A stretch of 64,000 bases of DNA from Acidobacteriota bacterium (GCA_019244185.1 JAFATB010000014.1:63587-127586); one strand, 5' to 3'; shown: positions 22,225-55,852, counted from the first letter of the stretch. Program-made: numbers and translations. The notes: generated by a model not told the origin, from the letters alone.

Positions 22225-22283
22225 GCCCGCTTTCGACACGCCGCGCAACCGCTTGTGGCGCGCGCCACCTTTCGCGCGGAAGC

Positions 22284-28013: not shown

Positions 28014-29578
28014 AACTCGCGATCGCGCAGATGGAACGGCGAGTGTCCGCGCTGGATCGCGGGCGCCCAGACGACGGCGAGCTTCTCGCGCGGTCCCGCG
28101 AAGCGATGCGCGCCGCTCGCGAGCGTACGCGCGCCGGTGAACGGCGTGCCGTCGAGCGTGCCGCGCACTTCGCCGCGCTCGCTGACGATCGTGTACTCGC
28201 CCGGCACCGCGATGGTGAACGTGCCGTCGTCGCGCAGCCATTGTCCCGACGCGCGCAGGCGTCCCATGTCGAGAAAGTTCGCGCTGAGGAACGCGCGTCC
28301 CTGCGGCGGCCACATCGGGCCGTCCGCCTGCGCGACGTGCGTGCGCGTGCGAATCACATCCGCCGCGAGCGTGTCGGGGATCAGGCCGTGCGCCATCTGC
28401 GCGCGGGTGATGTTCTCGAGGACGTAGTAGAACGGGCGACGCCGATAGATCGTCTCGCCCTTGAGGTCGAGCAGCAGCTCGCCGGGATGCGTGAGCCGCA
28501 GCGCCTGCGCCATCATGGTCGTGTGCCAGCGCGTGTCGTTGCGGAACTGATTCGCGTAGTGCACGAGCGCGAGCAGCAGCACGACGACGGCGATCGCGAA
28601 CGCCTGCAGCGGATTGCGCGCGCGCACGAGCATCGCCGCGACGAAGATCGCCGCGAGCGGCATGAGCGAGAGCAGGTCGCGCGGCGAGATCAGCACCCAG
28701 AAGCCGCCCAGCGTGATGACGTACACGCCGATGGCGACGGCGAAGAAGAAGCGCGCGGAGTCGTGCGTCTTCGGACGCAGCCGCATCGCCGCGTAAACCA
28801 GCGCCGCCATCGCGAACGGCCACGCCACGCGGCCGATCCAGACGCTGCGCCGCGTCAGCACGATGTTCTCGTTGAACGTGAAGACGCACCACACCAGGCG
28901 ATCCCACGCGCCGAGCGCCACGAAGAGCACGACCAGGATCGCCGGCACGAGGACGAGGCCGCCCAGCAACGGCAGCAGCGGCGAGAGCGCATCGCCCCGC
29001 TTCTCGATCCAGCGCACGATCGCCGCGGCACCCGCGAGCGTCGCGAGGAGCAGCGTCGTCTTCAGCGAGACCGACATCGCGCATCCGAGGAGCAGGCCGG
29101 CGAGGAACGTCCAGCGCGGCGTCCACGGCTTCAGCGCGAGCACGACCAGTGCCGCCATCCAGAACGCGTTCCACAGATTGTCGGTGCGGTACTCGAGCGA
29201 CTTGAGAAAGAACGGCGGAAAGAGCGAGAGCAGCACCGCCGCCCACGCCGCCACGCGCGCGTCGTAGAGCCGCCGCGCGAGCGCATACGTCGCCCACACC
29301 ACGAAGGCGAAGAGCGCGAGCATCGGCACGCGCATCCAGAGCAGGATGTTTGCGCGCTCGCCGAACAGCGCGAGGATCGGCGCGGTCAGCAGATGAAAGA
29401 GCGGCGCGTGGTTGTCGAAGTAGTCGCGATACTGCACGAGCCCCTGCGTCCATCCCCACGCCACGTGCAGGTGCTGCTGCTCGTCGGAGTCGAAGCGGTA
29501 GCGGAAGAGCGCGACGAGGCGCAGCACGACCGAAGCCGCGCCCGCCGCCGCGAGCAGGATGCGTTCCGCTTTGCTCAA
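28010..29578 (-). CDS. GT-C fold membrane glycosyltransferase (ArnT/PMT-like), putative
   Basis: More than 10 predicted TM helices. Acidic loop motif RFDSDEQ after the first TM. Start placed at a TTG (29578), because the ORF-track N-terminus (to 29737) runs across the tRNA-Arg gene and is therefore not real. Confidence 0.45.
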   Translation of the reverse strand: MSKAERILLAAAGAASVVLRLVALFRYRFDSDEQQHLHVAWGWTQGLVQYRDYFDNHAPLFHLLTAPILALFGERANILLWMRVPMLALFAFVVWATYALARRLYDARVAAWAAVLLSLFPPFFLKSLEYRTDNLWNAFWMAALVVLALKPWTPRWTFLAGLLLGCAMSVSLKTTLLLATLAGAAAIVRWIEKRGDALSPLLPLLGGLVLVPAILVVLFVALGAWDRLVWCVFTFNENIVLTRRSVWIGRVAWPFAMAALVYAAMRLRPKTHDSARFFFAVAIGVYVITLGGFWVLISPRDLLSLMPLAAIFVAAMLVRARNPLQAFAIAVVVLLLALVHYANQFRNDTRWHTTMMAQALRLTHPGELLLDLKGETIYRRRPFYYVLENITRAQMAHGLIPDTLAADVIRTRTHVAQADGPMWPPQGRAFLSANFLDMGRLRASGQWLRDDGTFTIAVPGEYTIVSERGEVRGTLDGTPFTGARTLASGAHRFAGPREKLAVVWAPAIQRGHSPFHLRDREF

Positions 29579-29601
29579 GATGAAGAAGCCGCCGTTTTCG
29601 A

Positions 29602-29677
29602 TGGCGCGCCCTGAGGGATTCGAACCCCCAACCAGCGGTTCCGAAGACCGCTGCTCTATCCGTTGAGCTAAGGGCGC
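29602..29677 (-). tRNA. tRNA-Arg (anticodon UCG)
   Basis: Cloverleaf folded by hand: acceptor GCGCCCT/AGGGCGC, D-stem GCTC/GAGC, anticodon stem GCGGT/ACCGC with loop CTTCGGA, T-arm GGGGG-TTCGAAT-CCCTC, discriminator G and an encoded CCA. 76 nt. Confidence 0.85.
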
Positions 29678-29758
29678 GCAGGCGCCGCGCCATCGTACTC
29701 GACACGCCGCCGCTCCGTGAATAGAATGCGCGCCCACGCTGTTCCGGTGGTTCCTTAC

Positions 29759-29834
29759 GCCGATGTAGCTCAGTTGGTAGAGCAGCTGATTCGTAATCAG
29801 CAGGTCACCGGTTCGAGTCCGGTCATCGGCTCCA
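29759..29834 (+). tRNA. tRNA-Thr (anticodon CGU)
   Basis: GCCGATGTAGCTCAGTTGGTAGAGC 5' half. Anticodon stem GCTGA/TCAGC with loop TTCGTAA. T-arm ACCGG-TTCGAGT-CCGGT. Acceptor GCCGATG/CATCGGC plus T-CCA. 76 nt. Confidence 0.85.
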
Positions 29835-29848
29835 TCTGCATCAACGAC

Positions 29849-30373
29849 TTAGCGCCGGCCGTGAGGCCGGCGTTCTCGTTTTCCCACAAGATTTCCCACA
29901 AAAGTCAGCAGTTCGTCGACGGCAGCATCGACGCCGGCGCACTCTTTCGCCGCGCCACCGATGCATCGTTCCGGCGCGATCGCGTACGCCGCCGCGGCCT
30001 CAGTCGGCGTTTGCGTAAGCGGCAGGTCCTGCTTGTTCACGAGGTACACGATCGGACGCCGATCCGCCGCCGCGTTGAAGAGCGTGAGCGCCGCGAGATT
30101 GTGCGCGTGCCTCGCGACTTGCGCGTCGAGCACGAAGAGCACGCCGTCCGCCGCACGATAGAACTCGACTGCCGCCGCGGCCGCGGCATCTGTGGCCGCG
30201 GCATCCAGGGTTTCGAAGTACCGGTTGCCGGGCAGCACCCGCGCGAGCTGCACGCGATGAACGCCGCGCTGGATCGACACGAAGTCGCTCGCCGTCGCGG
30301 AGGACGTCCGCGCGAGGCATTTCATGACTTCCGACCGCCCCGACATCGGCGGGCCGGCGACGGCGATTCGCAT
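29849..30373 (-). CDS. Ras-like small GTPase (MglA/Roc/Arf-like family)
   Basis: MRIAVAGPPMSGRSEVMK (P-loop G1-like) and LVNKQD (G4 NKxD). About 175 aa. Divergent from the large operon at 30451. Confidence 0.6.
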   Translation of the reverse strand: MRIAVAGPPMSGRSEVMKCLARTSSATASDFVSIQRGVHRVQLARVLPGNRYFETLDAAATDAAAAAAVEFYRAADGVLFVLDAQVARHAHNLAALTLFNAAADRRPIVYLVNKQDLPLTQTPTEAAAAYAIAPERCIGGAAKECAGVDAAVDELLTFVGNLVGKRERRPHGRR

Positions 30374-30450: not shown

Positions 30451-31044
30451 ATGCGGAGATGGATCGGCGGTTGGATCGCTGCGGTGCTGTTGTTGTTCGC
30501 GTTCGGTGTGCCGTGGCTGCGCGCGCAGTCGAACGCGGCGCGCGTGACGACGACGCAAACGGAAGAAACCGTCGACGCGACGGGGACGGACGGGGTGCAA
30601 ACCACGTCGACGACCACCACCACGACGTCCGTCATCGAAGGCGGCATTCCGTCGACCTCCGCCGCGCCGCCGCCCGCGTGGACGCACCTCGTGCGCATCG
30701 CCGCGAACGCCGGACCGATCGCGTTCCTGCTGCTGGCGTGGCTCATCGGCGGAATCATCCACGTGCGCATGGTCCGCCGCGAGCAGGCGCAGTTCCCGGT
30801 GCTGCGCGGCAGCCGCGCGCCGCAGACGGTGCCGATGATCGTCAGCGCGCTCCTGTTCCTCGTCCCGGCCATCCTCTTCATCGTCTTCGAGGTGCGCTCG
30901 CGCTACGAGATCCGCCGCGGCCTCGCCGGCGTCGTCGACGAATGGCAGCCGGTCACGGTGCACGCGTGGACGGCGCTCGTGATCTGTCTCGCGCTCGCGT
31001 TGATCCCGTGGCTGCTCGCGCGCCGCGCGGACACGGTCGCATAG
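30451..31044 (+). CDS. membrane protein with signal peptide, Thr-rich linker and 3 TM helices
   Basis: MRRWIGGWIAAVLLLFAFGVPWLRAQS, then TTSTTTTTTS, then three hydrophobic helices. 13 bp upstream of the giant gene. Confidence 0.5.
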   Translation: MRRWIGGWIAAVLLLFAFGVPWLRAQSNAARVTTTQTEETVDATGTDGVQTTSTTTTTTSVIEGGIPSTSAAPPPAWTHLVRIAANAGPIAFLLLAWLIGGIIHVRMVRREQAQFPVLRGSRAPQTVPMIVSALLFLVPAILFIVFEVRSRYEIRRGLAGVVDEWQPVTVHAWTALVICLALALIPWLLARRADTVA

Positions 31045-31057
31045 GAAGGACGGAATC

Positions 31058-34000
31058 GTGGCGAACTACCTCATTGCGGTCGGCGGCACCGGCCAGCACG
31101 TCGCACTCGCGGTGGCCGATTTCATCGCGCTCGCGTACGAGATCTACACCGAAGAATTTCCGAACGTTCAGATGATTCTCGTCGACGCCGATCAGGCGGC
31201 GGACACGGATCAGCCATCAGCGTGGCAGGAGGCGCGCGCGCGGCTCAACGCGCTCGGTCTGCTCGCCGGCGACAGCTTCGAATGCGTCCCGCTTCCGGTG
31301 CACTCGCAGCTCGCCGACTCGCGGCGCATGTACGAGTTCGTGAATCGCCTCGGCGCGTCGTTCGGTCCGAACGCGGCGGACGCGCTGCTGCTGCGCGAAC
31401 AGCGCGAGGTCGACGTGACGACCGGCTTCTACGCGCAGCCACGCGTCGGCGCGATGATGGCCGAATGGCTCTTCAATGAAGTGACGCGCGGCGACGGCGT
31501 GAACCCGCAGCTCGCGCGCATCTTCGCGCTCGCCGGCGATCCGGCGAATCGCATCGTCGTCGCGGGGTCGGGCGTCGGCGGCACCGGCGCGGGCTTCGCG
31601 CCCGCGCTCGTGCGGCGGCTCTCGGCGGCAAGCGGTGGTGGCCGGCTGATGGCGCTCATGGCCACGGAATGGTTCCGCCTCTCGGGCCTGTGCGCGAACC
31701 GCCTTTCGGAATCGGTGCAGAAGAGCAACGCGAACTCCGCGCTGTGGCACGCGGCGCATTCGGGCTCGAGCGCCGTGCGCACGATTCTGTTCGGACATCC
31801 GTCCGTCTCGCGCGCGCCGGAGGAGGAATGCCAGAGCGGCGCGTTCCAGGCGCGCAAGCGCAACCTCACCATTCCGTACTATGCGGCCGCGGCGGCGCTG
31901 TCGTTCTTCGCCGGCGATGCGAATGGCGGCACGCACGTGCCCGCGGCGACGCTCGCGGGCGACGTCGTTGCGCTGCCGAAGTCGCTGCGGATCACGCCGC
32001 GTCTGACGTTGCGCGAGCTCGTCGAGTCGAACGTCGAAGCGGTCGGGCGACTGACGCTCGCATCGGAGTATCTGCGCGGTCGCTATCAGGGATTCGTGCT
32101 GCCGTTCTCGTCGCTGAGCGGCCGGATCGCGGCGCTCGATCAGACCGACCGCCAGCGCATCGACGGTCCGCTCGCCGCGAAGCGCGCGGCCTTGCGCAAC
32201 CTCGGCGTCTCCGACGAGAAGCTGCCCGTCGTGCCGCGCATTCATCGCGGTCTCGCGACGCTGCGCGGCTGGGTCAACGGCAGAGTCGATCGTCCGTACG
32301 ATCTCTGGAAGGACGTTCCGGTCGTGCCGCCGCAGACGACCGAGCGCAAGGCTGAAGCCGTCGCGGCCGACAGCGACACCGCGGCGCTGCTCATCCGCAA
32401 GATCGGTTATGCCAGCCGCGTGACCGGCGGCAACGTCGTTCCGATCACGCAGGCGCAGGTGCGCGAGCTCGTGACCGTCGACGACGTCGACGTATCGAAA
32501 GTGCCGGCGTCGGACGCGGTGGAGCTCACGCTCGGCGACATCTTTCGCAATTGGGAAGCGCGCAACGGCGAGGAGAAGGCCGAGCTCGCGGCGCTGCTCG
32601 TCGAGGACGGGCGCGTGCGGCGTCCAGTGCTCGTCTCCGGTGACAAGGGCGACCGTCCGCGCGAATGGCTGAAGCGCTGGCTGCTGCTCGCGAACCTGCT
32701 CGTCGAGAACAAGCTGACGGTCGAACCGAAATCGCTGCCGTTCACGACGGGAAAGATTCTCTCGTTTCGCGGCATCCCGATCGGCGAGCTCTCGCGCGAG
32801 TTCGTCTGCCTGCCGCTCGTCAACGGCTACTGGAACGACGAGGCGACGATCGGCGCGCTGTGGAATGCGGCGTCGCGGCTCGAGTCGCTCGCGACGTGGT
32901 GCCGCAACACGGCCGCGGTCGCGCGCTGCCGAACGGCCGCACTGCCGGCGTGGCTCGACGTGCTGCTCTTCGCGACCTCGCGCTACGCCGGCGTGACCAA
33001 GCAGTTCACGTCGCAGAGCGTGACTGTGCGCTGGCCCGGCATCGCGGAGCCGGTCTCGCTGCCGCTGCCGAATGCCGCCGCCGGCAGTGCCGACGCGAAA
33101 GACTGCGTAGCCGCGGCGGCGGAGGCGTTCGGCGTGCTCACGCCGCAGCCGTCGCCCGCGGAGATGTCGCCGGCCGTGCGCGCGGTGGTGCAGGAGATCG
33201 CGCGCATCGCGCTCCCGGTTCCGCGGCTCGGCGGCGGCGAAACGAAGAGCATCGTCTTCTCGGAGTTGCTGCCGCCGGCGGCGCGCGACTGCCTCTTCGG
33301 CGAGATCGTCGTCGACACCGACGCGCGATGCGCGTGGCGGCTCGAAGCGACCGCGCGCATCGTCACGTCCGTCGCCGGCGAGTTGCTGACGGAGAACGTC
33401 GGCTGCTTCCGCAACGAGCAGCGGACGGAGTGGCTGACGCCGCTGCGGCGCGAGTACGTCCCGCTGCTCAAGTCGGGCGTCGTTGACGTGCGCAGCGAGG
33501 AGCACGGCCAGGAGCTGCGCGTCAGCGTGAGAGTCCACGACCGCACATTCGTCGAGTCGTACGCGGCGTCGCGCGTGCGTGCGATCAATCCGCTGCTGTT
33601 GCATTGGCCGGCGGCCGTCGCCAGTCCGTCGGCGAGCCTCACGGTGCTTTTCGACGTGCCGGAGCATCGCTACAGCCCGCAGACGGTGTACGCCGTGATG
33701 CACGACGCGCAGGCGAAGGCGTGGACGCTCTCCGCGCCGCTGAGCGAGCGGCACTCGCTGCACTACCTCGCCACCGACGGCAACGTGCCGCACAGCCTCT
33801 CGTTCGACCTCGAGCGTCACGACGTCGGCTTCGTGAAGATCGAGCGCGCGGTGCAGCACCTCGAAGACGCCACGCAGCGCGTCGCCGTCGACTTCGGCAC
33901 ATCGGCAACCGTCGTCGCGATCGACGGCGCGCAGAAAACGGAAGTGCTCGATCTCCTCGCCGCCGGCGCCGATGCGACCGCCGAGGTGTGGAAGGGGAGC

Positions 34001-35344
34001 GCGCTGGAAGCGTTCCAGTGGTACGGGACGCGTCCGGTGGATTCGACGATCCGCGAGAAGCGTCGCGCGCCGAGCGCGCTGGTCTATCTCGGATCGGCGA
34101 AAGATGCGCGTCCGCCGCGGCCGCAGTACGGCGATCACGTCCTGCTCGATCAGGACGACTGGCAGTGGAAGAGCGACGGCACGTCGCTGCTCTTCGACAT
34201 CAAGTGGACGCGCGAGCGCGCGTATCGCGAGGCGTTTCTCGTCCACCACCTCGAGCAGTGCATCGCCGCCGCACTCAGCAAAGGCATCGTGCACAGCCGC
34301 CGGCTCTCCGTCATCTTCACGATGCCGCTGCGGCAGCGCGCCCGCGCGGCGGATTTCGTCGCGGAGATCGAAGGCGTCATCGCGACCTTGCACCGCCGCA
34401 CCGGACTGCAGCTCGAGTCGCGGTTCGCGTACGAGTCGGAAGTCATCGCGCCGATCGAAGCGCCGGCGACCGATGTCGACGCGATCGTGATCGCGGACCT
34501 CGGCGGCGGAACGCTCGATTTGTTCGCGAAGCACTTCGGCCGCGGACGCAGGGGCGGCGCGCGCAACGTCGTCTTTGAGAGCGCGCGCATCGGCGGTCAC
34601 TCGCTCGTCGAATGGCTGACGCGCGACTTCGGCGGCACCGAGCTCGCGGAGTATCGCCGCAAGCTGCGCATCGGCTCCTTGCCGCAGCTCGACGAAGCGT
34701 CGTCGCGCATCGCCGCGAGTTACTTCGACGTCGTGAAGCGCTTCACCGCGCTCTGGATGGATTCGGTCTGGCGCTACTGGACCGGCGGCGACCAGCCAGG
34801 CCGCGTGCACGTGCAACTCCTCGGCATGGGCTGGTCGCTGCCGGCGTCGCCGGACGAGCAGATGGCGCTGCATCTCACCGACATCGCGCGCGCCCTCGGC
34901 TCGCAACTCGCGTACAGCCGCTACGAGGATCCGACGCTGCCCGGCAATCCGAAGGAGCTGCTGGCGCGCCGCACGATCCTGCACGGCGGCGCGACGCGCG
35001 GCGACTTCGTCGCGTTCGAACCGGCGGCGGTGAACGGCATCGAAGTCAGCGTCGCGGGCGAAGTCCGCCGCGACGACGAGCCGCTGCGCGGGCTCGGCGC
35101 GAACACGCCCGCCGTCGGCATCACCGCGAACGGACTGCAGCGCATCGCGAAGCTGACCGGCGCGCGCGAGGAGATCGTCGCCGCCGTGCGCGACGGCACG
35201 CGCATCGCGCTCACCACGCGCTCGACCGGCGTCGACAAACACGACGGCGCCGTGCTCGAAGGCGTGAACGTCTGGGTCGCCAGCCCGCTGGCCATCGCCG
35301 CGGAAACGTACACGCGCCAGGTGCTGCTGCAGGTGCACGCATGA
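31058..35344 (+). CDS. Giant (1428 aa) protein with N-terminal tubulin/FtsZ-like GTPase signature and C-terminal Hsp70/actin-like ATPase signature
   Basis: N-terminus IAVGGTGQHVALAV (T1-loop-like GGxGxx). VVAGSGVGGTGAGFAPALV matches the FtsZ/tubulin T4 signature GxGGGTGxGxAP. C-terminal region: AVDFGTSATVVAIDG (phosphate-1-like DxGT[ST]) and IVIADLGGGTLDLFA (Hsp70 phosphate-2 DLGGGTFD-like). These are motif-level assignments only. Confidence 0.6.
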   Translation: MANYLIAVGGTGQHVALAVADFIALAYEIYTEEFPNVQMILVDADQAADTDQPSAWQEARARLNALGLLAGDSFECVPLPVHSQLADSRRMYEFVNRLGASFGPNAADALLLREQREVDVTTGFYAQPRVGAMMAEWLFNEVTRGDGVNPQLARIFALAGDPANRIVVAGSGVGGTGAGFAPALVRRLSAASGGGRLMALMATEWFRLSGLCANRLSESVQKSNANSALWHAAHSGSSAVRTILFGHPSVSRAPEEECQSGAFQARKRNLTIPYYAAAAALSFFAGDANGGTHVPAATLAGDVVALPKSLRITPRLTLRELVESNVEAVGRLTLASEYLRGRYQGFVLPFSSLSGRIAALDQTDRQRIDGPLAAKRAALRNLGVSDEKLPVVPRIHRGLATLRGWVNGRVDRPYDLWKDVPVVPPQTTERKAEAVAADSDTAALLIRKIGYASRVTGGNVVPITQAQVRELVTVDDVDVSKVPASDAVELTLGDIFRNWEARNGEEKAELAALLVEDGRVRRPVLVSGDKGDRPREWLKRWLLLANLLVENKLTVEPKSLPFTTGKILSFRGIPIGELSREFVCLPLVNGYWNDEATIGALWNAASRLESLATWCRNTAAVARCRTAALPAWLDVLLFATSRYAGVTKQFTSQSVTVRWPGIAEPVSLPLPNAAAGSADAKDCVAAAAEAFGVLTPQPSPAEMSPAVRAVVQEIARIALPVPRLGGGETKSIVFSELLPPAARDCLFGEIVVDTDARCAWRLEATARIVTSVAGELLTENVGCFRNEQRTEWLTPLRREYVPLLKSGVVDVRSEEHGQELRVSVRVHDRTFVESYAASRVRAINPLLLHWPAAVASPSASLTVLFDVPEHRYSPQTVYAVMHDAQAKAWTLSAPLSERHSLHYLATDGNVPHSLSFDLERHDVGFVKIERAVQHLEDATQRVAVDFGTSATVVAIDGAQKTEVLDLLAAGADATAEVWKGSALEAFQWYGTRPVDSTIREKRRAPSALVYLGSAKDARPPRPQYGDHVLLDQDDWQWKSDGTSLLFDIKWTRERAYREAFLVHHLEQCIAAALSKGIVHSRRLSVIFTMPLRQRARAADFVAEIEGVIATLHRRTGLQLESRFAYESEVIAPIEAPATDVDAIVIADLGGGTLDLFAKHFGRGRRGGARNVVFESARIGGHSLVEWLTRDFGGTELAEYRRKLRIGSLPQLDEASSRIAASYFDVVKRFTALWMDSVWRYWTGGDQPGRVHVQLLGMGWSLPASPDEQMALHLTDIARALGSQLAYSRYEDPTLPGNPKELLARRTILHGGATRGDFVAFEPAAVNGIEVSVAGEVRRDDEPLRGLGANTPAVGITANGLQRIAKLTGAREEIVAAVRDGTRIALTTRSTGVDKHDGAVLEGVNVWVASPLAIAAETYTRQVLLQVHA

Positions 35345-36045
35345 ACCAGATGCCGGTGATCCTCGCGCTCGCGGTTCTCGCGCTGACGATCGTGCTCACC
35401 GCGCTCGCGCTGACGATGCGCCTGCGCGCGCTCGAGAAAAGCGTCCACGCGGCGCAGGACCGCGGCCGCGCGTCGAAGGACAAAGACACGCGGCGCGAAG
35501 AGCTGGCGCAGCTGAAGAGCGAGCTGCAGAAGAGCATCGAGTCGCTGCGCTCGACGATCGTGAATGTGCCGGTGGAAGTGGTGCGTCGGCTGCCGCGGCA
35601 AAACTTCGATGCAGCTCCGCCGCGCGCGATGAATCCGCCGCCGGCATCGCGCAGCGTGTTCCGCGATGAGCGCCAAGCCGAGCATTACGCTGAGTCAGTC
35701 TCCGCGGAAGACGGAGCCGCGCAGCTGCTTGCGCTCGCGAACCGCATCGTGCAGCAGAACTCCACCACGCTCGACGCCGTGCGCGCGAGCACCGACGCTC
35801 TCGCCGCGCACGTCACCGTCTGGCCGCCGTCGGGGGAAGGCACTCCGATCGCGTTCATCGTCGAGCATCGCGGCACGTGGTACGCGGTCCCGAACGTCGT
35901 CAAGCCGGCGCGGCTGCCGAACGACTGGTTCAACCGCGCCGACTTCGGCGTGAACGACGAGATCCGCCGCGTCGAATCGCTGCCGCGCCTCACGCGCCGC
36001 GGCGACGACTTCGAAGTGCAGCACGCCGGAGTGTTCTCGCGATGA
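35341..36045 (+). CDS. single-pass membrane protein with coiled-coil segment and C-terminal globular domain
   Basis: ATGA overlap with the giant gene. N-terminal TM MNQMPVILALAVLALTIVLTALALT, then heptad-like ELAQLKSELQKSIESLRS. Confidence 0.5.
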   Translation: MNQMPVILALAVLALTIVLTALALTMRLRALEKSVHAAQDRGRASKDKDTRREELAQLKSELQKSIESLRSTIVNVPVEVVRRLPRQNFDAAPPRAMNPPPASRSVFRDERQAEHYAESVSAEDGAAQLLALANRIVQQNSTTLDAVRASTDALAAHVTVWPPSGEGTPIAFIVEHRGTWYAVPNVVKPARLPNDWFNRADFGVNDEIRRVESLPRLTRRGDDFEVQHAGVFSR

Positions 36046-37427
36046 CGGTGCTCTCGCTGCAGGCTCCTCGGCCTCCGGCGCGGCGGCTCTTCTGGGAGCC
36101 GTGGCTCGCCGTCGTCGTCGCGGCGGCGCTGTACCTGCGCGTCGCGGCCGGCCAGTGGGGCGGGCTCGCCGCGCTCGCATGCGAGCTCGCGCTCGCGGTG
36201 ATCCTGCGCGCGCAGCTGTTGCGGCGCGCGGACGAAGAGGCGGAGCTGACGGAGCGCCTCGCATCGCGCGACCTCTCGATCACCGACGTCGATCGCCTGA
36301 TCGGCAGCACCGCGGAGCGTGTGCAGGGGATGTTCGCCACCGCGTCGAGCGCCGTGCTGGCCACGGGGATGGCGGCGTCCGCGTTTCTGCTGCTGTTCTA
36401 CGCGAGCGCCGGAACGACCGGCGGCGGCATCGTGTCGGTCGCGCCGAAGGCGTTCGTCGCGACCGGCTACGCGATCCTCTGCGCGCTGGCGCTGACGCGC
36501 GACGCGCATCACCTGAACGCGACGATCTTCGAGCCGCTGCGGCGGAAGAAACTCGACGACGCGAATCGCGAGCCGACGCCGGCGACGCGATCCGCGGTCG
36601 CGCCGGAGTCGCGGACGTCGCGCGTCGAGGAGCTCATCGAACAGCTCGTCTCGATGCAGATCAGCCAGCTGCAGGCGCTCCACGAAGCGAATCAGCAGCT
36701 CGCCGCCGCCGCGTCGGAACGCGTCGACGAAGAGTCGGGCGCGGTGCGCGTGAAGCTCGCGAAGGGACTCACCGATTTCCGCAAATCGGTCGAGCAGCTG
36801 AACGAGATCGTGCAGTCGCTCAACGCGCGTTTCGACGCACTCACGCACGAGGACGCGGCGCTCTTCGAGCAGCACCGGCGCGAGCTCGTGAGCGAGATCG
36901 TGCGGTTACCGCAGCAGGTCATCGACCGCACCGCGGGACTCATCGCCACGTCGGTGACGCGGGTCGAGGAGCAGTTCCGCGCGACGCTGCAGACGATTCA
37001 CGACGACGAGATCCGCCGCGCGCGCGATCTGCTGGCCGGCGAATTCCGCACGCTGCGCGATCAATTCGAGCTCACGGAGCATTCCGTCTCCGCGATCAGC
37101 ACGCGCTTCAACGACGTCGTCTCCTCGCTCGACGCGCTCGCCTCCGCGTTCGACCGCGGCGCGAAGTCGGTTGTCGGCAGCGCCGCGGAGTTCACGCGCG
37201 AGGCGGAGTCGCTCGTCGCGTCCGTCACCACGGCGTTGGGCCGGCTGGGCGACGCGGACGAGACGAACGCGTCGCTGCTCACGCCGCTCACCGAAGCCGC
37301 GACCGCGGTGCGCAAAGCGTCGTCGCTCGTCGCCACCGACATGCGCAAGGTCGCCGCGGAACGCGAGCGCCTCGGCCGCGTGCGGCTGAAGCTCCTCGAG
37401 CTGCTGCCGAACGGGCAGGAGAACTGA
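36042..37427 (+). CDS. MotA/TolQ/ExbB-like membrane protein with long C-terminal coiled-coil tail (ZorA-like architecture)
   Basis: N-terminal 4 TM helices. The last two (LATGMAASAFLLLF and GIVSVAPKAFVATGYAILCALALT) resemble the TolQ LGTVxGIxxAF and GIAPxIAEALxATAxGL helices. About 300 aa of heptad-rich sequence follow. ATGA overlap with the upstream gene. Confidence 0.5.
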   Translation: MTVLSLQAPRPPARRLFWEPWLAVVVAAALYLRVAAGQWGGLAALACELALAVILRAQLLRRADEEAELTERLASRDLSITDVDRLIGSTAERVQGMFATASSAVLATGMAASAFLLLFYASAGTTGGGIVSVAPKAFVATGYAILCALALTRDAHHLNATIFEPLRRKKLDDANREPTPATRSAVAPESRTSRVEELIEQLVSMQISQLQALHEANQQLAAAASERVDEESGAVRVKLAKGLTDFRKSVEQLNEIVQSLNARFDALTHEDAALFEQHRRELVSEIVRLPQQVIDRTAGLIATSVTRVEEQFRATLQTIHDDEIRRARDLLAGEFRTLRDQFELTEHSVSAISTRFNDVVSSLDALASAFDRGAKSVVGSAAEFTREAESLVASVTTALGRLGDADETNASLLTPLTEAATAVRKASSLVATDMRKVAAERERLGRVRLKLLELLPNGQEN

Positions 37428-37429
37428 CG

Positions 37430-38155
37430 ATGTTCGGGCGCGGCGTCAACTACTGGATCTCGTGGGCCGACCTCACGTTCATGCTCTTCATCGGCGGACT
37501 CGCGGCCGTCGCGTTCAGCGACGAGCAGCGGACGGCGGCGCAACAGGAACTCGCGGCCGCGAAGGGTGCGCTCGCGGAAGCGCGCGGCGAGCTCGACGTC
37601 CTCCGCAGCCACAGCAATCCGTGCGCGGATGCGAGTCCGTTCCTGGCCGGCTTCTCGAGCTGCGTCGCGCGGGCGACCGGCCGCAGACAGGTGCCGGGCA
37701 GCGGCTGCTTCGTGACCGTCGGCGAAGACGTGATCCGCTTCGAGAAGGGGAAGGCCGTGCCGCTCGACGCGTCGTCCGCCGACGCCGTGGCCGGCTGCCT
37801 CTACACGAACGCGCTGCGGTTCGCGGCGGCGGATCCGCGCTCCTTCAACGCGATCACGATTCACGTCGACGGACATACCGACTGCGTCGGCACGCGCGCG
37901 GGAAACGAGAAGCTCGGCGCGGACCGCGCGTTCAGCGTGTACGCGCGCCTCCTCGAACGCGCGGAGAGCGATCCGGTCTGGCTATCGCCGAAGCAGCGGC
38001 GCGCGTTCCTCGGACGCATCGCCGTGCGCTCGTTCGGCGACACGCGTCCCGTCGAAGGCTCACGGTGCATCGCGCCGTTCGGCTGGGAAGGCGATCGCCG
38101 CGTCGTCGTCTCCGTGCAGCTCGCGACCGAAGGCGCCGCGGGGAGGCGCGGGTGA
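37430..38155 (+). CDS. MotB/OmpA-family protein (stator MotB/ZorB-like)
   Basis: YWISWADLTFMLFIGGLAAVAF matches the MotB plug/TM region with the conserved proton-accepting Asp (ADL). C-terminal OmpA-like peptidoglycan-binding motif ITIHVDGHTDCVGTRAGNEKLGADRAFSVYARL. Confidence 0.75.
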   Translation: MFGRGVNYWISWADLTFMLFIGGLAAVAFSDEQRTAAQQELAAAKGALAEARGELDVLRSHSNPCADASPFLAGFSSCVARATGRRQVPGSGCFVTVGEDVIRFEKGKAVPLDASSADAVAGCLYTNALRFAAADPRSFNAITIHVDGHTDCVGTRAGNEKLGADRAFSVYARLLERAESDPVWLSPKQRRAFLGRIAVRSFGDTRPVEGSRCIAPFGWEGDRRVVVSVQLATEGAAGRRG

Positions 38156-38331
38156 TCTCGACGATCGTGATGGTCGCCGTCGTCGTGCTGCTCGCGTTCA
38201 CGCTCGCCGCGGCGCGGCGTTCGTGGCAGCGGCAGCTCGAACTGGAACGCGCAAACGAGACGATGCAGCGCGAGCTACAGCGCCACCGCGACACCGTGCA
38301 TTCGATTCTTCGGGAGTTGCAGAATCCATGA
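38152..38331 (+). CDS. small single-TM protein (59 aa), unannotated
   Basis: GTGA overlap with the motB-like stop. VISTIVMVAVVVLLAFTLAAA TM plus a charged helical tail. ATGA overlap with the next gene. Confidence 0.45.
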   Translation: MISTIVMVAVVVLLAFTLAAARRSWQRQLELERANETMQRELQRHRDTVHSILRELQNP

Positions 38332-39545
38332 GAAAGCCTGCGTTGCTGCTCGCGGTCTGGTTCGTCGTGACGGCGTGCGGTGGAGGTGAAGAACGCGCCG
38401 TCACCGTCGAATGCCGGCCGTCCGTGAGCGTCGTCATTCCGGCCGCGGGCAACGCGCGACGCAAGGCGGAGGCGGCGCAGGCGCGCGAAGTCGTGCAGGT
38501 GTACTGGGACGTCTCACGATCGATGCGCGATTTCGCGGTCGCGCGCAAGCATGGCGGCGGCGCGGAAGCGACCGACGATCTCACGCCGGTAGTCGAAGCG
38601 CTCGACAGCGGTGTCTTGCTTTCCGCGCATGCGGAGGCGGTCGAACAGTACGGCGTCGGCGAATCGATCGCGCGGCTGGCCACCGCGCGCGCGGCGCTGC
38701 ATCCCACCGCGAACCGCACCGCGCTGCATCTCGCCGCGGAGCAACTCGGCGACGCGCTCGCAACCGGCCGCGCGCAAGCCGCGATCGTCGTCTCCGACAT
38801 GGAGCTCGATACGCCGCCGCGCGCGTCGACCGACGCCACGGTCTGCGGCGGCGTGCCGCTGCCGAGCACGCCGCTGGCGGGCTCGCTGTTCGGCCGCTGC
38901 TTCGAGAACGCGGTGCTCGCCGTCGACGCGCCGAGCGCCATGCGCGCGCGCCTGCTCGCGCACGTCTTCCGCAAGGCCTCGCACGGACGCGAGCTGTTCA
39001 TCCTCCTGCTGGCGACGGACCACGCGTTCGGCCAGCACATCTCCGAACAGATCGTGAGCCGTCTCGACTTCGAGCGGCAGGTCATCTTCGATGCGAACGC
39101 GGTGGCGGCGTCGAACGTCCGCGGCTGCCGCTTCACGATCCCCGAGTCGCGCGTGCGTCCGCGCGATCTGCCGCGGTGCGGCGCGAAGTGCTTCGATCGC
39201 GACGCATCCATCGAAACCGAATGCGATCTGCGCCGTCCGGCGAACGATGCTTGGATCGAGCCCGCGGGACGCGGCTCGACCGGCACCTCGTACGAGTCGC
39301 TGCAGAAACGGGCAGGCGACCGCGAGGAGCCGGCGCGCATGCGATTCACGATTCCGTGCAGTACGCCGCCTGGGCGATTCGACGCGTCCGTCTCGTTCAC
39401 ATGGCGCCGGCGTTTAGCGCGCAACGCAGCCGAGCCGTTCGCGCAAAAGGAAAGTGTGCGCGATCTCTTCGACAGTCTCTCCGACGCGATCGTGCGCGTC
39501 GTCGCGCCGCGCACGCTGCGCGTCAGCGTGAATCTCCACCAATGA
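38328..39545 (+). CDS. vWA-domain lipoprotein
   Basis: Lipobox LAVWFVVTAC. MIDAS DxSxS motif (YWDVSRSM) shortly after the signal. 4-nt coupling with both neighbours. Confidence 0.6.
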   Translation: MRKPALLLAVWFVVTACGGGEERAVTVECRPSVSVVIPAAGNARRKAEAAQAREVVQVYWDVSRSMRDFAVARKHGGGAEATDDLTPVVEALDSGVLLSAHAEAVEQYGVGESIARLATARAALHPTANRTALHLAAEQLGDALATGRAQAAIVVSDMELDTPPRASTDATVCGGVPLPSTPLAGSLFGRCFENAVLAVDAPSAMRARLLAHVFRKASHGRELFILLLATDHAFGQHISEQIVSRLDFERQVIFDANAVAASNVRGCRFTIPESRVRPRDLPRCGAKCFDRDASIETECDLRRPANDAWIEPAGRGSTGTSYESLQKRAGDREEPARMRFTIPCSTPPGRFDASVSFTWRRRLARNAAEPFAQKESVRDLFDSLSDAIVRVVAPRTLRVSVNLHQ

Positions 39546-39658: not shown

Positions 39659-39724
39659 ACGCCCCAAGGTAGGGACTCGCCCGCTTCCCGACTCTCCATG
39701 GTTGTGGAACGTAAAGGAGACGTG

Positions 39725-41266
39725 ATGAGTCGACGTGTAATCCGAGGTTTGGCCGCGCTCGTTTTCCTCGTTGGGGCTCTTTCCTGCAAGCAAGAGACGC
39801 CGTCGCCGGCGGTCGACAAGGCGCCGCCGCCCGCGCCGAAGCCGGCGGTGGTGACGACGGTGAATCTGCCGCCGAACTCGTGGCAGGTGCCGGTCGACGT
39901 CAGTCCCACCCCGCCGCCCAATCCGCCGCAGAACAACTACCTCAACCTCGGCTGGCAGACCTTCGTCGCGCTCAACTGGCCGGCGCTCTCGCCGTCGTCA
40001 GGCGGACAGAACGCGCAGCCGGACACGAACTCCGTCATCGGCGCGGTGGCACCGAACGGCGCGATCGTGCCGACGGTGTGGAACACGTACCGCGATCTCA
40101 GCACGATCATGCTCGATCAGGGCGCCGATCCGGGATCGACGTACACGCAGCAGGTTTCGATCCCGTCCGCGTGCGCGGCGATCACGCCGGCCAATCCGGT
40201 CGCGCCGGGCTTCCAGCCGATGTACATCGACGGCTCGACGTTCCAGACCGCGACGATCGTGCGCGACTACATCAATCAGGCCACCGGCAATCCGCTCGTC
40301 GATCAGAAGGGGTGGTACACGATCACGGACATCCGCGTCGATCCTTCCGAGTACGCGTACATCCAGCAGAACGGCTACTACCTCGGCGCGAATCAGGTCG
40401 CGGCGTACAACAAGTCGGGCCAGTTGCAGCCGTTCCCGAAGAACGGCACCGAGATCACGCCGCCGCTGCCGTCGTACGCGCAGTACGGCGCGCTCGAGGT
40501 GAAGGCGACGTGGCGCGTGCTGAATCCCTCGACCGACTCCGCGATCATCCCGCGCTACTACACGCAGTGGGGTTACTTCATGCAGCCGGACGGCAAGACC
40601 TGCCAGGGACCGGCGCTGTTCGGCCTCATCGGCATGCATATCCTTCGACTCACACCGTCGATGGGCGGCACGTGGTTCTGGGCGAGCTTCCAGCAGGTCG
40701 ACAACGTCGCCGCACCGAACGGCATCGCGCCGACGCTCGCGAAGCTGGGCACGCCGAACGGCAACTGCGGCGGCAACTACAACAAGAAGCCGCCGCAGGT
40801 CACCGGCAACATTCCGTGGAACGGCAACAACACGCCGGACGACATCTGCCAGGTCAAGAACATCCCGAGCGAAGTGCAGCAGGTCAATCAGACGTGGCAG
40901 AAGAATCTGAGCGGCACGGTCTGGCAGTACTACGAGATGGTGCACACGCTCAACCCTTGCCCGTCGGGCGCGAAGGAATGCTACGTCTTCCCGCCGATCA
41001 AGGATCAGAACAACAAGATCGATCTGAAGATCTTCGGCAACAACGCCATCGAGACGTACTTCCAGACCAGCAACTGCATGACCTGTCACGGCTCGGCGTC
41101 GGGCAACGGCGCGCCGTCGCCGCTGACCGGCACGAACCAGATCTTCACGTTCGTCCTGCTCAACGCGTACATGCCGCAGACGACGCAGACGAACGCGAAG
41201 CGCAGCGAGATCAAGCGGCTGCTCGAGGTGCTGCCGCAGAGCGACGCCGTCGCCATGCATCCGTAG
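39725..41266 (+). CDS. secreted lipoprotein, Pro-rich linker, N/Q/T-rich body, single C-terminal CxxCH motif (possible c-type haem site)
   Basis: RBS AAGGAGA. Lipobox LVGALSC. PAVDKAPPPAPKPAVV linker. NCMTCHG near the C-terminus. Codon and amino-acid composition shifts to lower GC relative to its neighbours. Confidence 0.5.
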   Translation: MSRRVIRGLAALVFLVGALSCKQETPSPAVDKAPPPAPKPAVVTTVNLPPNSWQVPVDVSPTPPPNPPQNNYLNLGWQTFVALNWPALSPSSGGQNAQPDTNSVIGAVAPNGAIVPTVWNTYRDLSTIMLDQGADPGSTYTQQVSIPSACAAITPANPVAPGFQPMYIDGSTFQTATIVRDYINQATGNPLVDQKGWYTITDIRVDPSEYAYIQQNGYYLGANQVAAYNKSGQLQPFPKNGTEITPPLPSYAQYGALEVKATWRVLNPSTDSAIIPRYYTQWGYFMQPDGKTCQGPALFGLIGMHILRLTPSMGGTWFWASFQQVDNVAAPNGIAPTLAKLGTPNGNCGGNYNKKPPQVTGNIPWNGNNTPDDICQVKNIPSEVQQVNQTWQKNLSGTVWQYYEMVHTLNPCPSGAKECYVFPPIKDQNNKIDLKIFGNNAIETYFQTSNCMTCHGSASGNGAPSPLTGTNQIFTFVLLNAYMPQTTQTNAKRSEIKRLLEVLPQSDAVAMHP

Positions 41267-45084: not shown

Positions 45085-45090
45085 GCGCCG

Positions 45091-47735: not shown

Positions 47736-47748
47736 CGCGGAAACGAAA

Positions 47749-55817: not shown

Positions 55818-55852
55818 GGGGCGCGGTGTAACCTCCGCGCAGCCATTGCGGC

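Follow-up and report, generated by a model that had tools for sequence, protein, structure and literature searches.

Identification of the giant gene

Can a single polypeptide carry both a tubulin/FtsZ-type GTPase and an Hsp70/actin-type ATPase and, if so, in what kind of machinery would it work? This question is raised by a long gene found in 64,000 nucleotides of DNA from an Acidobacteriota bacterium (hereafter the window, meaning the whole stretch that was analysed), where a preliminary description had recognised short motifs of both kinds. Translation of the frame, which starts with GTG, confirmed all four of them: IAVGGTGQHV occupies residues 6-15 and VVAGSGVGGTGAGFAPALV residues 167-185, and AVDFGTSATVVAIDG and IVIADLGGGTLDLFA are found at residues 943-957 and 1143-1157, respectively (Table 1). 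The GC content by codon position (0.70/0.50/0.89) matches the expectation for a genome of 69% GC, for which reason the frame was judged to be a real gene, and a ribosome-binding site, GGAAGGA, is present upstream.

An alignment of 32 members of the family, whose overall identity falls to 19-22%, revealed invariant residues in both domains, among them G9, G10, T11, G12 and H14 together with G170, S171, V173, G174, G175, T176 and G177 in the N-terminal one, and D945, F946, G947, T948 and S949 together with D1147-D1154 in the ATPase. All divergent long representatives keep the same GTPase and ATPase motifs and, since these are invariant across such a strongly diverged family, chance does not account for them. 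An artefactual origin of the motif pairs, be it through misassembly into a chimera, through two genes run together by an overlooked stop codon or a frameshift, or through a generic glycine-rich Rossmann domain that imitates tubulin signatures, has largely been refuted already and is hardly credible.

Table 1. Position of the giant gene, its regions and the accompanying genes in the window
Feature	Position	Strand	Description or basis
Giant gene (1428 aa)	31058..35344	+	FtsZ/tubulin-like GTPase, uncharacterised middle, Hsp70/actin-like ATPase, C-terminal tail domain
FtsZ/tubulin-fold GTPase domain, residues ~1-290	31058..31930	+	T1-like GGTGQH 9-14, T4-like GSGVGGTGAG 170-179
Middle region, residues ~291-934	31931..33860	+	Conserved; helical, then beta-rich; without known domain
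Hsp70/actin-like (ASKHA) ATPase domain, residues ~935-1390	33861..35230	+	Model, Foldseek, profile matches, motif conservation
Gene A, 197-aa membrane protein, first of the operon	30451..31044	+	Hydropathy, synteny
Gene C, 234 aa	35341..36045	+	N-terminal TM helix, coiled-coil stretch, C-terminal globular domain
Gene D, 461 aa, MotA/ExbB/ZorA-like	36042..37427	+	Three TM segments, helical cytoplasmic tail of ~290 aa
Gene E, 241 aa, MotB/ZorB-like	37430..38155	+	TM helix with conserved Asp14 (WISWADLTFMLF); C-terminal OmpA-type peptidoglycan-binding domain
Gene F, 59-aa single-TM protein	38152..38331	+	Short coiled coil; conserved in locus L005 (59% identity)
Gene G, 405-aa predicted lipoprotein (LLAVWFVVTAC)	38328..39545	+	MIDAS-like DVSRSM motif

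Domain structure of the giant protein

The idea that tubulin/FtsZ-like and Hsp70/actin-like signatures coexist on the same chain held at the level of the fold, and the predicted models support a GTPase domain of the FtsZ/tubulin fold at the N-terminus and an ATPase domain of the Hsp70/actin fold at the C-terminus, with the motifs lying in the expected nucleotide-binding loops. In the N-terminal model, whose confidence is moderate to low (mean pLDDT 47.5), a Rossmann-like topology from S1-H1 through S6 superposes better on FtsZ/tubulin than on other Rossmann folds. GGTGQH lies between a strand (3-8) and a helix (9-27) and GSGVGGTGAG between a second such pair (165-171 and 176-192), as the T1 and T4 loops of the FtsZ/tubulin superfamily; neither varies within the family or in its distant subfamilies, the T4 loop (G-V-G-G-T-G-A-G) being a variant of the canonical GGGTG[ST]G. 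The domain is nearest to Tubulin_2/FtsZl1 and Tubulin. In Pfam, the giant protein of the window scored 15.1 bits with PF00091 (Tubulin), below the cut-off of 33, and its residues 1-300 scored 24.4 bits with PF13809 (Tubulin_2), below the gathering cut-off of 27. Sub-threshold PF00091 matches were obtained for 16 of 19 family members (best E 2.6e-4), and distant relatives such as the Psychrobacter protein carry outright (precomputed) PF13809 matches. Neither a T7 loop nor an activation domain could be recognised, the alignment having no conserved NxDxxD-like motif and the model dropping below pLDDT 50 beyond residue ~285, so that tubulin-like polymerisation is speculative.

Foldseek searches with the model of residues 700-1428 bore out the assignment of the C-terminal part, as they retrieved Hsp70 nucleotide-binding domains (DnaK, Ssb, Ssz1, BiP) and ParM with probability 1.00 and E values of 1e-7 to 1e-5 (best ~1e-7); the model shows the two-lobed ASKHA fold, with target-normalised TM-scores of at most 0.48 and pLDDT 80-94 over ~1049-1389, most of the domain. 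Profile searches likewise matched Hsp70 nucleotide-binding domains, and Pfam and NCBIfam gave no match whatsoever for residues 900-1428. Phosphate-1 (D945-S949) and phosphate-2 (D1147-D1154) each lie in a predicted hairpin, and an HMM alignment puts them on DnaK residues 4-28 and 164-235 and aligns an E-S-x-A-A connect motif to the NEPTAAA of DnaK, the three motifs being conserved in the aligned long representatives. Other invariant positions are K1049-W1050 and E1128, and an adenosine-like motif is found at G1256-x-x-W1259.

The approximately 700 aa separating both domains had been described as lacking obvious motifs and are indeed empty in Pfam, with only conserved Trp/Pro positions to be noted (W592, W614, W632, W659 and W850-P851 in the 32-sequence alignment). 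The model has low pLDDT over residues 288-650 and a partly confident beta-rich segment at ~700-770, and an HMM of this middle region detects the closer subfamilies only.

Organization of the operon

Seven translationally coupled genes (ATGA/GTGA start-stop overlaps) make up a 9-kb cassette, in which the giant gene comes second and most products are membrane or periplasmic proteins. The product of gene A begins like a signal peptide and also has a Thr-rich linker and three TM segments, its hydropathy windows being 3-25, 80-109, 123-152 and 166-194; a homologue with 58% identity sits immediately upstream of the giant gene in L005, and a small multi-TM protein is encoded at this place in 38 loci, and likewise in Psychrobacter, Caballeronia and locus L061. 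On the 3' side, the ATG of gene C overlaps the stop codon of the giant gene, and at least 24 loci have an analogous gene for a TM-anchored protein behind the giant one.

Genes D and E resemble the ZorA and ZorB components of Zorya. For gene E, found in 39 loci, Pfam reports an OmpA domain (PF00691, E 5.5e-7, 30.3 bits over a cut-off of 27.2), and the PADLOC ZorB models (ZorB1) match with E values of 6e-7 in the window and 4.5e-10 for locus L001. With the family profile, ZorB chains 8vvn_B and 8qyd_F are within the top three PDB matches, Asp being aligned to Asp, and gene E combines the MotB-family TM Asp and the peptidoglycan-binding domain expected of ZorB. Gene D matches the PADLOC ZorA models (ZorA1) in the tail region only (E 1.5e-4), and its family profile retrieves, mainly through the tail, ZorA structures 8qyd_A (5e-8) and 8qyk_A and type II ZorA 8vvi_F, the PDB entries 8VVN and 8VVI corresponding to Zorya ZorAB. 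A profile restricted to the TM segments gave type II ZorA 8vvi_F (E 0.0025) and MotA 8ucs and 6ysf (MotA 0.006) as its top three, with the alignments falling on the GxGGT and ALxxSxxG helices. The topology, three TM segments plus the long tail, is consistent with ZorA; the ZorA-like evidence for gene D is weak, with E values of 1e-4 to 1e-8 driven in part by coiled-coil composition.

Regarding gene G, the family alignment shows nearly invariant D61 and S63 and an invariant D157, and its HMM detects an equivalent gene in Psychrobacter and Caballeronia (E ~1e-5). The motif pattern DxSxS...D, by itself, makes a vWA-like periplasmic component possible, Pfam and PDB searches giving no support for the fold. 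No PADLOC model matches the giant protein, A, C or G, and no recognised effector (nuclease, pore, NADase) is encoded in the cassette of the window.

Distribution and genomic context

An exhaustive profile search with the N-terminal domain retrieved 947 cluster representatives. Among those listed, 75 exceed 1,250 aa, and 74 of these have both domains, with both active sites conserved. Judging from these sequences, the giant protein is a member of a large undescribed family, comprising at least several hundred sequence clusters with both nucleotide sites conserved, in which the tubulin–Hsp70 fusion is old and apparently obligate. A description of this fusion was not found in the literature searched, in line with the initial remark that it was unfamiliar among characterised proteins.

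In ~50 loci, belonging to Acidobacteriota, Rhodothermales, Gemmatimonadota, Latescibacterota and other groups, the genes are arranged either as A-giant-C-G-D-E or as A-giant-C-D-E-F-G, and all the hosts found are diderms, Bacteroidota, Rhodothermales and Acidobacteriota among them. Genes D and E are absent in the distant subfamilies (Psychrobacter, Caballeronia, L061), which indicates that a stator is not essential to the function of the giant protein, and we infer that the A-giant-C-G core is an ancient unit and the ZorAB-like pair a clade-specific addition. Homologues of 79% identity have different flanks, which points to mobility of the cassette as a whole. An N-terminal TIR together with a kinase is present in one homologue, and others are fused to TerD and adjoin a Ter cluster.

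In the window, a complete Shango system adjoins the operon (SngA/B/C, E 1e-89 to 1e-263), and an MkoA-like helicase and a caspase are also encoded. Near homologues we find an Ssp-like DUF4007/PAPS-reductase cluster with an AAA_15 ATPase (L057), an MmeI-type restriction-modification gene with IS66 (L056), and HicAB and PIN toxins (L003 and L002), and the Psychrobacter homologue is surrounded by integrase, transposase, HNH and McrB-like genes. The operon of the window sits in a defence island; the association with such islands is anecdotal, coming from ~8 loci read. Upstream, in divergent orientation, the window also has an ORF for a small Ras-like GTPase, which is not conserved beside the cassette in L005.

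Proposed function

The operon most probably encodes a new machine of phage defence or of the envelope, and there is about an even chance that the giant protein, with its two NTPase domains, serves as a cytoplasmic subunit in a multi-component apparatus that spans the envelope and blocks infection or kills the cell. Counted in favour of this reading are the folds, the conservation of both active sites, the fusion, the operon and its synteny, the differing flanks, Shango, the other defence and mobile neighbours and the TIR/kinase and TerD relatives, as well as the likeness of D and E to ZorA and ZorB and a split-gene precedent with FtsZl1 and an Hsp70-like protein. In such an apparatus, D and E would form a peptidoglycan-anchored 5:2-type stator sensing envelope perturbation, for example phage entry, with the signal passing through the tail of D, and sensing or anchoring might fall to lipoprotein G in the periplasm and to A, C and F in the membrane. 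Recruited to the membrane, or switched on there, the giant protein would build an assembly through GTP-dependent self-association of its tubulin-like domain and through a clamp or oligomerisation cycle that its Hsp70-like domain would drive with ATP, and it is this assembly that would block infection or kill the cell.

A different role, and an unlikely one in our view, follows the proposal of Makarova and Koonin for FtsZl1-vWA-OmpA operons: the cassette would remodel membranes and serve as a cytoskeletal system, either as a housekeeping function or under certain conditions. The giant protein would build filaments or scaffolds at the membrane, used to form vesicles, maintain the envelope or differentiate the cell, and the MotAB/TolQR-like pair would supply energy to a process at the outer membrane, like Tol-Pal. 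The proximity of the N-terminal domain to Tubulin_2/FtsZl1 and Tubulin, with outright PF13809 matches in distant members, argues for it, as do the OmpA-family and vWA-like proteins shared with FtsZl1 operons, the exclusively diderm hosts found and the mostly membrane or periplasmic components. However, the cassette is distributed patchily, in particular strains, and its flanks are not the same in close relatives, and Shango, restriction-modification, Ssp-like, toxin-antitoxin and mobile-element genes adjoin the cassette; TIR/kinase and TerD fusions among relatives, and D and E matching ZorAB better than TolQR or ExbBD, also speak against it.

Far less probable still is a surface-motility or secretion-type apparatus, where a proton-driven MotAB-like motor would work with a cytoplasmic actin-like/GTPase track, as in the Agl-Glt gliding of Myxococcus (TolQR-like motor, MreB, MglA) or GldLM-driven type IX secretion. 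The coexistence of a MotA/MotB-like pair with an actin-fold and GTPase-domain protein in the cytoplasm, hosts such as Bacteroidota, Rhodothermales and Acidobacteriota, and the small GTPase ORF of the window would all fit, but this ORF is not kept in L005, no adhesin, secretin, Glt or Gld homologues were detected among the cassette genes, and a cassette of just 9 kb is island-borne and lacks D and E in distant subfamilies.

Comparison with known systems

The C-terminal domain shares with canonical Hsp70/DnaK and ParM/MreB the ASKHA fold, phosphate-1 DxGTS, phosphate-2 DLGGGTxD, the E-x-x-A-A connect motif and a GxGW adenosine-like motif, but it has no Pfam HSP70, MreB or actin match and no recognisable substrate-binding domain, bears a large low-confidence insertion past the phosphate-1 hairpin and is embedded C-terminally in a 1428-aa protein. 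A canonical chaperone of the DnaK family was discarded on the missing Pfam HSP70 score and substrate-binding-domain match, and on a tail (~125 aa) that is too short. Fusions of an Hsp70-like NBD/SBD to McrB GTPase in early-branching NxD McrBC/CoCoNuT-related systems (PMC11090510) also join a GTPase and an Hsp70-like ATPase in one polypeptide of a predicted immune system; there, however, the GTPase is an AAA+ McrB instead of a tubulin fold, the partner genes are unrelated, and the Hsp70-like motifs are degenerate, whereas here they are strictly conserved. In the GTPase-centric conflict systems of Kaur, Burroughs, Iyer and Aravind (2020; PMC7159879), predicted to be NTP-dependent, vWA proteins are similarly combined with tubulin-family or HSP70-family proteins, which were proposed to form multimeric assemblies acting as thresholded effectors. 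The centre of those systems is a GAP1-N2 TRAFAC GTPase and their hosts are Firmicutes and Actinobacteria, with tubulin and HSP70 in separate genes of different, non-overlapping neighbourhood themes, whereas here both are fused, in diderm hosts and without a GAP1 GTPase.

The nearest precedents are the FtsZl1-vWA-OmpA systems and Zorya. FtsZl1 (Tubulin_2, PF13809), described by Makarova and Koonin in 2010 (PMC2875224), is also a large protein with a highly divergent N-terminal FtsZ/tubulin-like GTPase in which T1 and T4 are conserved and T6-H7-T7 is not identifiable, encoded with OmpA-family and several TM proteins and with vWA proteins, of which gene G is a possible counterpart, and having kinase-fused variants; in M. 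magneticum AMB-1 the order vWA-FtsZl1-vWA-vWA-Hsp70-like(1626 aa) provides the split-gene precedent (supplementary file 5 of the same work). FtsZl1 proteins, however, have ~1000-1100 aa and end in a coiled coil and an alpha-helical C-terminal domain, and the covalently fused ASKHA ATPase found instead at 935-1390 of 1428 aa sets the giant protein outside FtsZl1 by architecture. In addition, the cassette has no P-loop 'GTPase_new' gene, and it has a MotA-like partner for the OmpA/MotB protein, undescribed for FtsZl1.

With Zorya the cassette shares a location in defence islands and a neighbouring pair, made of a probable MotA-family TM protein, whose cytoplasmic tail is long and helical, and a MotB-family protein with a TM Asp and a peptidoglycan-binding domain, whose best PADLOC and PDB matches are ZorA and ZorB (8QYD, 8VVN, 8VVI). 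This similarity is far below family level, and many members of the family swap the OmpA domain of E for another periplasmic domain. Homologues of ZorC, D, E, F and G are absent, and the type-defining ZorC+ZorD, ZorE or ZorF+ZorG remain unmatched by PADLOC in the giant protein, A, C and G; the pair is here accompanied by small membrane proteins, a lipoprotein with a MIDAS motif and the giant tubulin/Hsp70 NTPase.

A tubulin-like and an Hsp70-like domain in one polypeptide

The cytoskeletons of all domains of life rely on two ancient NTPase folds, tubulin/FtsZ and actin/Hsp70, and the preliminary description had claimed that signatures of both occur in a single polypeptide, separated by about 700 aa without obvious motifs. 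The four motifs quoted for this claim are indeed found in the translation, at residues 6-15, 167-185, 943-957 and 1143-1157. The ORF itself is equally borne out: in a window with a GC content of about 69%, its GC by codon position is 0.70/0.50/0.89, as is typical of a true coding frame in this DNA, and its GTG start is preceded by GGAAGGA. Moreover, the N-termini of distant homologues line up with that of the protein (MANYLIAVGGTG) position by position, and the gene model is therefore sound.

When the whole giant protein was searched against Pfam, NCBIfam and PADLOC, only a sub-threshold Tubulin_2 match was obtained, and the C-terminal half gave no match. The N-domain scored E 2e-5 against Pfam Tubulin_2 (24.4 bits, below the cut-off of 27) and E 0.03 against Pfam Tubulin, at the T4 motif, and sub-threshold PF00091 matches were seen in 16 of 19 family members. 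As a profile against PDB sequences this domain retrieved nothing significant, with CetZ only at E 1.2, so that the tubulin assignment rests on structure prediction together with the weak Pfam matches. Since sequence methods were weak for the N-domain, structures were predicted from family alignments. The model of residues 1-705 was poor overall (mean pLDDT 47.5), with values of about 60-84 for residues 1-285, where strands and helices alternate in a Rossmann-like manner and where GGTG is placed between strand 1 and helix 1 and GSGVGGTGAG between strand 4 and helix 4. The top 50 PDB matches of this model in Foldseek were all FtsZ, CetZ, PhuZ or tubulins (E 1e-5 to 2e-4). The model of residues 700-1428 had a mean pLDDT of 69.6, reaching 80-94 across about 1049-1389, and matched Hsp70 nucleotide-binding domains (M. 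tuberculosis DnaK, Ssb, Ssz1, BiP and Hsc70) as well as ParM (E 1e-7 to 1e-5). A whole-family HMM searched against 177,635 PDB sequences also found Hsp70 nucleotide-binding domains only (best E 0.0045), with phosphate-1 lying on DnaK residues 4-28 and the family sequence YDESRAA...DLGGGTLDLF...SARLGG aligned with INEPTAAA...DLGGGTFDV...GDTHLGG of DnaK. As neither domain had unrelated folds as its top matches and the motifs fall on the nucleotide loops of the models, the interpretation as tubulin plus Hsp70 stands, supported by these predictions at the level of fold and motif.

No T7 loop or activation domain was identified, nor any conserved NxDxxD-like motif, in a model that is unreliable past residue 285, so that a coupling of GTP hydrolysis to polymerisation is not implied. 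Between the two domains (residues about 291-934) the protein is helical and then beta-rich, with no detectable relative, and C-terminal to the ATPase domain lies a conserved tail of about 125 aa.

Family size and conservation

Of the homologues retrieved by a word-indexed search, 33 are close (70-91% identity) and come exclusively from metagenome bins of Thermoanaerobaculia (Acidobacteriota); two more, of 1620 aa, match the giant protein at both ends only (30% over residues 1-250 and 29% over 894-1184). With a distant 1620-aa protein as query, a larger family of 1580-1760 aa and more than 218 clusters came to light, in which no member has a Pfam domain or an informative name. In a 32-sequence alignment covering both subfamilies, at 19-22% identity to the window protein, the invariant residues of the N-domain are G9, G10, T11, G12, H14, D43, D45, G170, S171, V173, G174, G175, T176, G177, W205, F206 and N224, and those of the C-domain are D945-S949, K1049, W1050, E1128, D1147-D1154, G1256 and W1259.

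An N-domain-only profile, run exhaustively with HMMER over 1.84 billion cluster representatives, matched 947 proteins at E <=1e-3 and 252 at E <=1e-10. Of the listed representatives, 75 exceed 1250 aa, and 74 of these are also matched by the HMM of the C-terminal domain (E <=4e-5), the sole exception being a protein of 1341 aa (P0311), and these matches extend to subfamilies with an N-domain score of only 1e-22. The long representatives retain the T1-like, T4-like, phosphate-1, E-[ST]-x-A-A, phosphate-2 and G-N-G-W motifs and the K-W pair; the fusion is therefore ancient rather than an assembly artefact, with purifying selection at both nucleotide sites. Proteins consisting of the N-domain alone form a separate set of about 455-505 aa, with weak Tubulin and Tubulin_2 matches. 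Neither the PLSDB plasmids nor the INPHARED phages gave a tblastn match to one family member (P0034), so that carriage of the family by plasmids or phages is not obvious.

Organisation of the cassette

Seven genes with overlapping or abutting start and stop codons (ATGA/GTGA; Table) form the cassette, the giant gene being in second place. The same seven genes, within entirely different flanks, occur at a related locus (L005) with a giant protein 79% identical to that of the window. With each GTDB species represented by one genome, a pattern scan gave 50 loci, all from metagenome-assembled genomes, whose hosts belong to Thermoanaerobaculia, Vicinamibacteria, Bryobacterales, Rhodothermales, Longimicrobiales/Gemmatimonadota and Latescibacterota, and further include a proteobacterium, Oligoflexales and one Methanosarcinales bin. 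Clustering of the neighbouring ORFs revealed a conserved order A-giant-(C)-G-D-E, with E-like genes at 39 of these loci, A-like at 38, G-like at 36, D-like at 31 and C-like at 24, the gaps being mostly contig ends. When the window's accessory proteins were compared directly, by BLAST and phmmer, with the accessory proteins of the 1600-aa subfamily, a link emerged for the MotB-like gene alone; for A, C, D and G, equivalence between subfamilies rests on order, size, topology and profile matches.

In the gene G family a D-x-S...D pattern is nearly invariant and reminiscent of the MIDAS site of vWA proteins. A vWA fold was confirmed neither by Pfam, which matched 1 of 26 members at E 0.002, nor by a PDB profile search, and gene G is thus retained as the carrier of a MIDAS-like motif and not as a vWA protein. 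Three neighbouring genes were also set aside as components: the lipoprotein gene H and the metallo-beta-lactamase-fold gene, both 3' of the cassette, are not conserved beside it in related loci, and the Ras-like GTPase ORF is divergent in orientation and absent upstream of the L005 cassette.

Table. Cassette genes and surrounding features, with their positions in the window
Feature	Position	Strand	Description
Helicase gene	18904-22572	-	1222 aa; RNase_H_2 and SF1 helicase (AAA_11/AAA_12); helicase part only matches Mokosh MkoA models, E 1e-40
Shango system	22284-28013	+	complete; immediately 5' of the cassette
SngA	22284-24497	+	TerB_N/TerB/TerB_C; PADLOC E 1.6e-89
SngB	24494-25837	+	ATPase; PADLOC E 3.8e-182; start overlaps SngA stop
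SngC	25818-28013	+	DEAD helicase; PADLOC E 2e-263
PMT_2-like gene	28010-29737	-	ORF as listed
tRNA-Arg(TCG)	29602-29677	-	
tRNA-Thr(CGT)	29759-29834	+	
Hairpin	29851-29874		terminator-like; after tRNA-Thr
Ras/MglA-like ORF	29849-30373	-	about 174 aa; resembles a small GTPase; P-loop with Arg for Lys (GPPMSGRS); NKQD G4 motif
Gene A	30451-31044		signal peptide and three TM segments
Giant gene	31058-35344	+	tubulin/Hsp70 fusion
Gene C	35341-36045		TM helix, coiled coil, globular domain
Gene D	36042-37427		three TM segments and helical tail of about 290 aa
Gene E	37430-38155		TM helix and OmpA domain
Gene F	38152-38331		59 aa, one TM segment
Gene G	38328-39545		predicted lipoprotein, DVSRSM motif
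Gene H	39698-41266	+	522 aa, Pro/Asn-rich predicted lipoprotein
MBL-fold gene	41366-42421	+	metallo-beta-lactamase-fold protein
Minus-strand group	42440-47748	-	downstream of the cassette
DUF4236 gene	44020-45090	-	in the minus-strand group
Kinase gene	55832-59167	+	1111 aa; N-terminal Ser/Thr kinase domain matches many PADLOC PD-T4-6 models, E ~1e-80

A stator-like gene pair

As judged from their sequences, genes D and E resemble the ZorAB and MotAB pairs, with scores that are individually weak, mutually consistent and backed by the adjacency of the two genes. Gene E exceeds the Pfam OmpA threshold, and its N-terminus (WISWADLTFMLF) fits the family consensus W-P-A-F-A-D-L-M-T-x-L-A, which we take to be the classical MotB channel helix and in which W9 is invariant and D14 nearly so. 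PADLOC ZorB models matched gene E at 6e-7 and its L001 orthologue at 4.5e-10, and the E family profile had 8vvn_B as its best and 8qyd_F as its third PDB match, Asp on Asp, these being the ZorB proteins of Zorya types I and II. Gene D and its orthologues were matched by PADLOC ZorA models at 1e-4 to 1e-5 and aligned with the PDB ZorA entries 8qyd_A, 8qyk_A and 8vvi_F at 5e-8 to 5e-7, a score that comes largely from the compositionally biased helical tail. For this reason a profile of the TM segments only was built from 25 sequences, and its top three matches were ZorA type II 8vvi_F (E 0.0025) and MotA 8ucs_C and 6ysf_E (E 0.006), in an alignment that covers both pore-lining helices (A-x-x-x-x-G-I-G-G-T-M and A-L-x-S-S-x-x-G-V, compared with G-M-V-G-T-L and A-L-I-T-T-F-Y-G in MotA).

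In most family members, the part of E that lies in the periplasm does not resemble OmpA. Among the MotB-like E proteins found in the 1600-aa subfamily, the majority (for example those at 19885-20589 in locus L002 and 18940-19617 in L003) lack the OmpA domain and carry in its place a conserved periplasmic domain, C-R-F-W-V-E-L ... F-L-L-[ST]-N-S-S-E-V-N-R-I-L, with no detected relative.

Distant subfamilies

A search with a distant representative showed that relatives of 1730-2000 aa occur in cultured bacteria, including a Psychrobacter protein named 'tubulin-like doman-containing protein' in RefSeq, with a PF13809 match (the cassette lies at about 2.04-2.07 Mb of CP014945), and a protein of Caballeronia sp. 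DA-9 listed as hypothetical. The distant-subfamily loci keep an upstream small multi-TM gene, a downstream TM protein and a secreted DxSxS protein (G-HMM E ~1e-5), and the D-E pair is absent from them. Therefore, the conserved core is A-giant-C-G, and the ZorAB-like pair is a peculiarity of the clade to which the window belongs.

Some relatives carry further domains. TerD domains are fused to P0349 (L061, 1-19473), P0256, P0343 and P0350; the giant gene of L061 is followed by two TerD genes and adjoins a complete Ter-type biosynthetic cluster (ATP-grasp_Ter, PRTase_2/TRSP, PELOTA_1/StiP, C-C_Bond_Lyase and TerD-trypsin). Together with the TerB-containing Shango system beside the window cassette, these fusions hint at a recurrent Ter link. 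Another relative, P0074 (2129 aa; L058, 682-7071), has an extra N-terminal module of TIR_2 and protein kinase domains at residues 1-516 and a degenerate phosphate-2 (GDLGARNLD), suggesting that the ATPase of this variant may be inactive.

Genomic context and possible function

In the window, the cassette lies next to a Shango system, with the helicase gene further upstream and, on the other side, the kinase gene, which is likely to be another defence gene of the same island. The minus-strand group contains, besides the DUF4236 protein, an 885-aa caspase-family protein (Peptidase_C14) with DUF4384 and a 572-aa protein with a weak PQQ/beta-propeller match, 40% identical to the C14-peptidase protein adjacent to the L005 cassette; the latter cassette is likewise flanked by caspase and CHAT proteins. 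Neighbours at other related loci are an AAA_15/AAA_21 ATPase and a DUF4007 and PAPS-reductase cluster (L057), an MmeI-type methylase/endonuclease and IS66 (L056), HicAB (L003), a PIN toxin (L002), and integrase, transposase, HNH and McrB-like genes (L059, Psychrobacter). Such an association with defence islands, anecdotal as it is, is suggestive. The two tRNA genes stand back to back about 600 bp 5' of the cassette and may mark the integration site of the island; tRNA genes were found in none of ten related loci. Because tRNA-Arg overlaps the 5' end of the PMT_2-like ORF, this gene must start further downstream.

The most likely reading, in which we place middling confidence, is that an envelope-spanning conflict system, which in this clade has recruited a Zorya-like stator, has the giant protein as its cytoplasmic component with two NTPase domains. 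If the cassette is a defence system, it has no recognisable nuclease, pore or NADase effector, and a physical, assembly-based mechanism is thereby indicated. In a bolder reading, the giant polypeptide, in which the classical cytoskeletal NTPase folds tubulin/FtsZ and actin/Hsp70 are united, would be governed by a ZorAB-like rotary stator, driven by ions and anchored to peptidoglycan, together with a MIDAS-type sensor in the periplasm, and would use GTP and ATP together to build a membrane-proximal polymer or clamp that halts phage infection. That the cassette represents a previously unrecognised class of prokaryotic immune or cytoskeletal machine working in this way is a tentative and somewhat doubtful proposal.

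The family would likely add a fourth kind of output for ZorAB-type stators and widen the question of which targets stator-motor signalling has. It is also a natural 'Rosetta stone', indicating that FtsZ-like GTPases and Hsp70-like ATPases cooperate in vWA-associated membrane systems, and it gives a handle on FtsZl1-type systems, for which we know of no experimental follow-up since 2010. As members exist in culturable Psychrobacter and Caballeronia, this biology is testable.

Comparison with known systems

FtsZl1 proteins are large and combine an N-domain that is FtsZ-like and divergent with a coiled coil and a C-domain that is helical, and their operons encode vWA proteins, a novel GTPase and OmpA-family proteins, for which a role in membrane remodelling was proposed (Makarova and Koonin 2010, PMC2875224). 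As in the giant protein, a T7 loop or activation domain was reported not to be identifiable in FtsZl1 (Makarova and Koonin 2010). A non-immune, membrane-remodelling role of this type is the main rival to the conflict-system reading and seems to us rather unlikely. In M. magneticum AMB-1, the genes amb2957-amb2961 encode vWA-FtsZl1-vWA-vWA followed by a 1626-aa COG0443 (Hsp70) protein (PMC2875224, supplementary file 5), and this operon, known from a supplementary table entry only, may be a split-gene counterpart of the fusion.

GTPase-centric conflict systems with vWA proteins include tubulin or HSP70 genes (Kaur et al. 2020, PMC7159879), although there the two are separate genes and alternative themes. 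Hsp70-like domains are also found fused to McrB GTPases (Bell et al. 2024, PMC11090510), and Tubulin_2 proteins appear as an outgroup only in Santana-Molina et al. (2023). Neither a tubulin-fold/Hsp70-fold fusion nor a ZorAB-like pair tied to one is described in the full texts searched, a coverage outside which most subscription journals lie, and the covalent fusion, the fact that it is universal in the family, and the association with a ZorAB-like pair all appear to be undescribed. Altogether, we place the cassette, as to its kind, among FtsZl1/vWA-type systems, here with a Zorya-like module.
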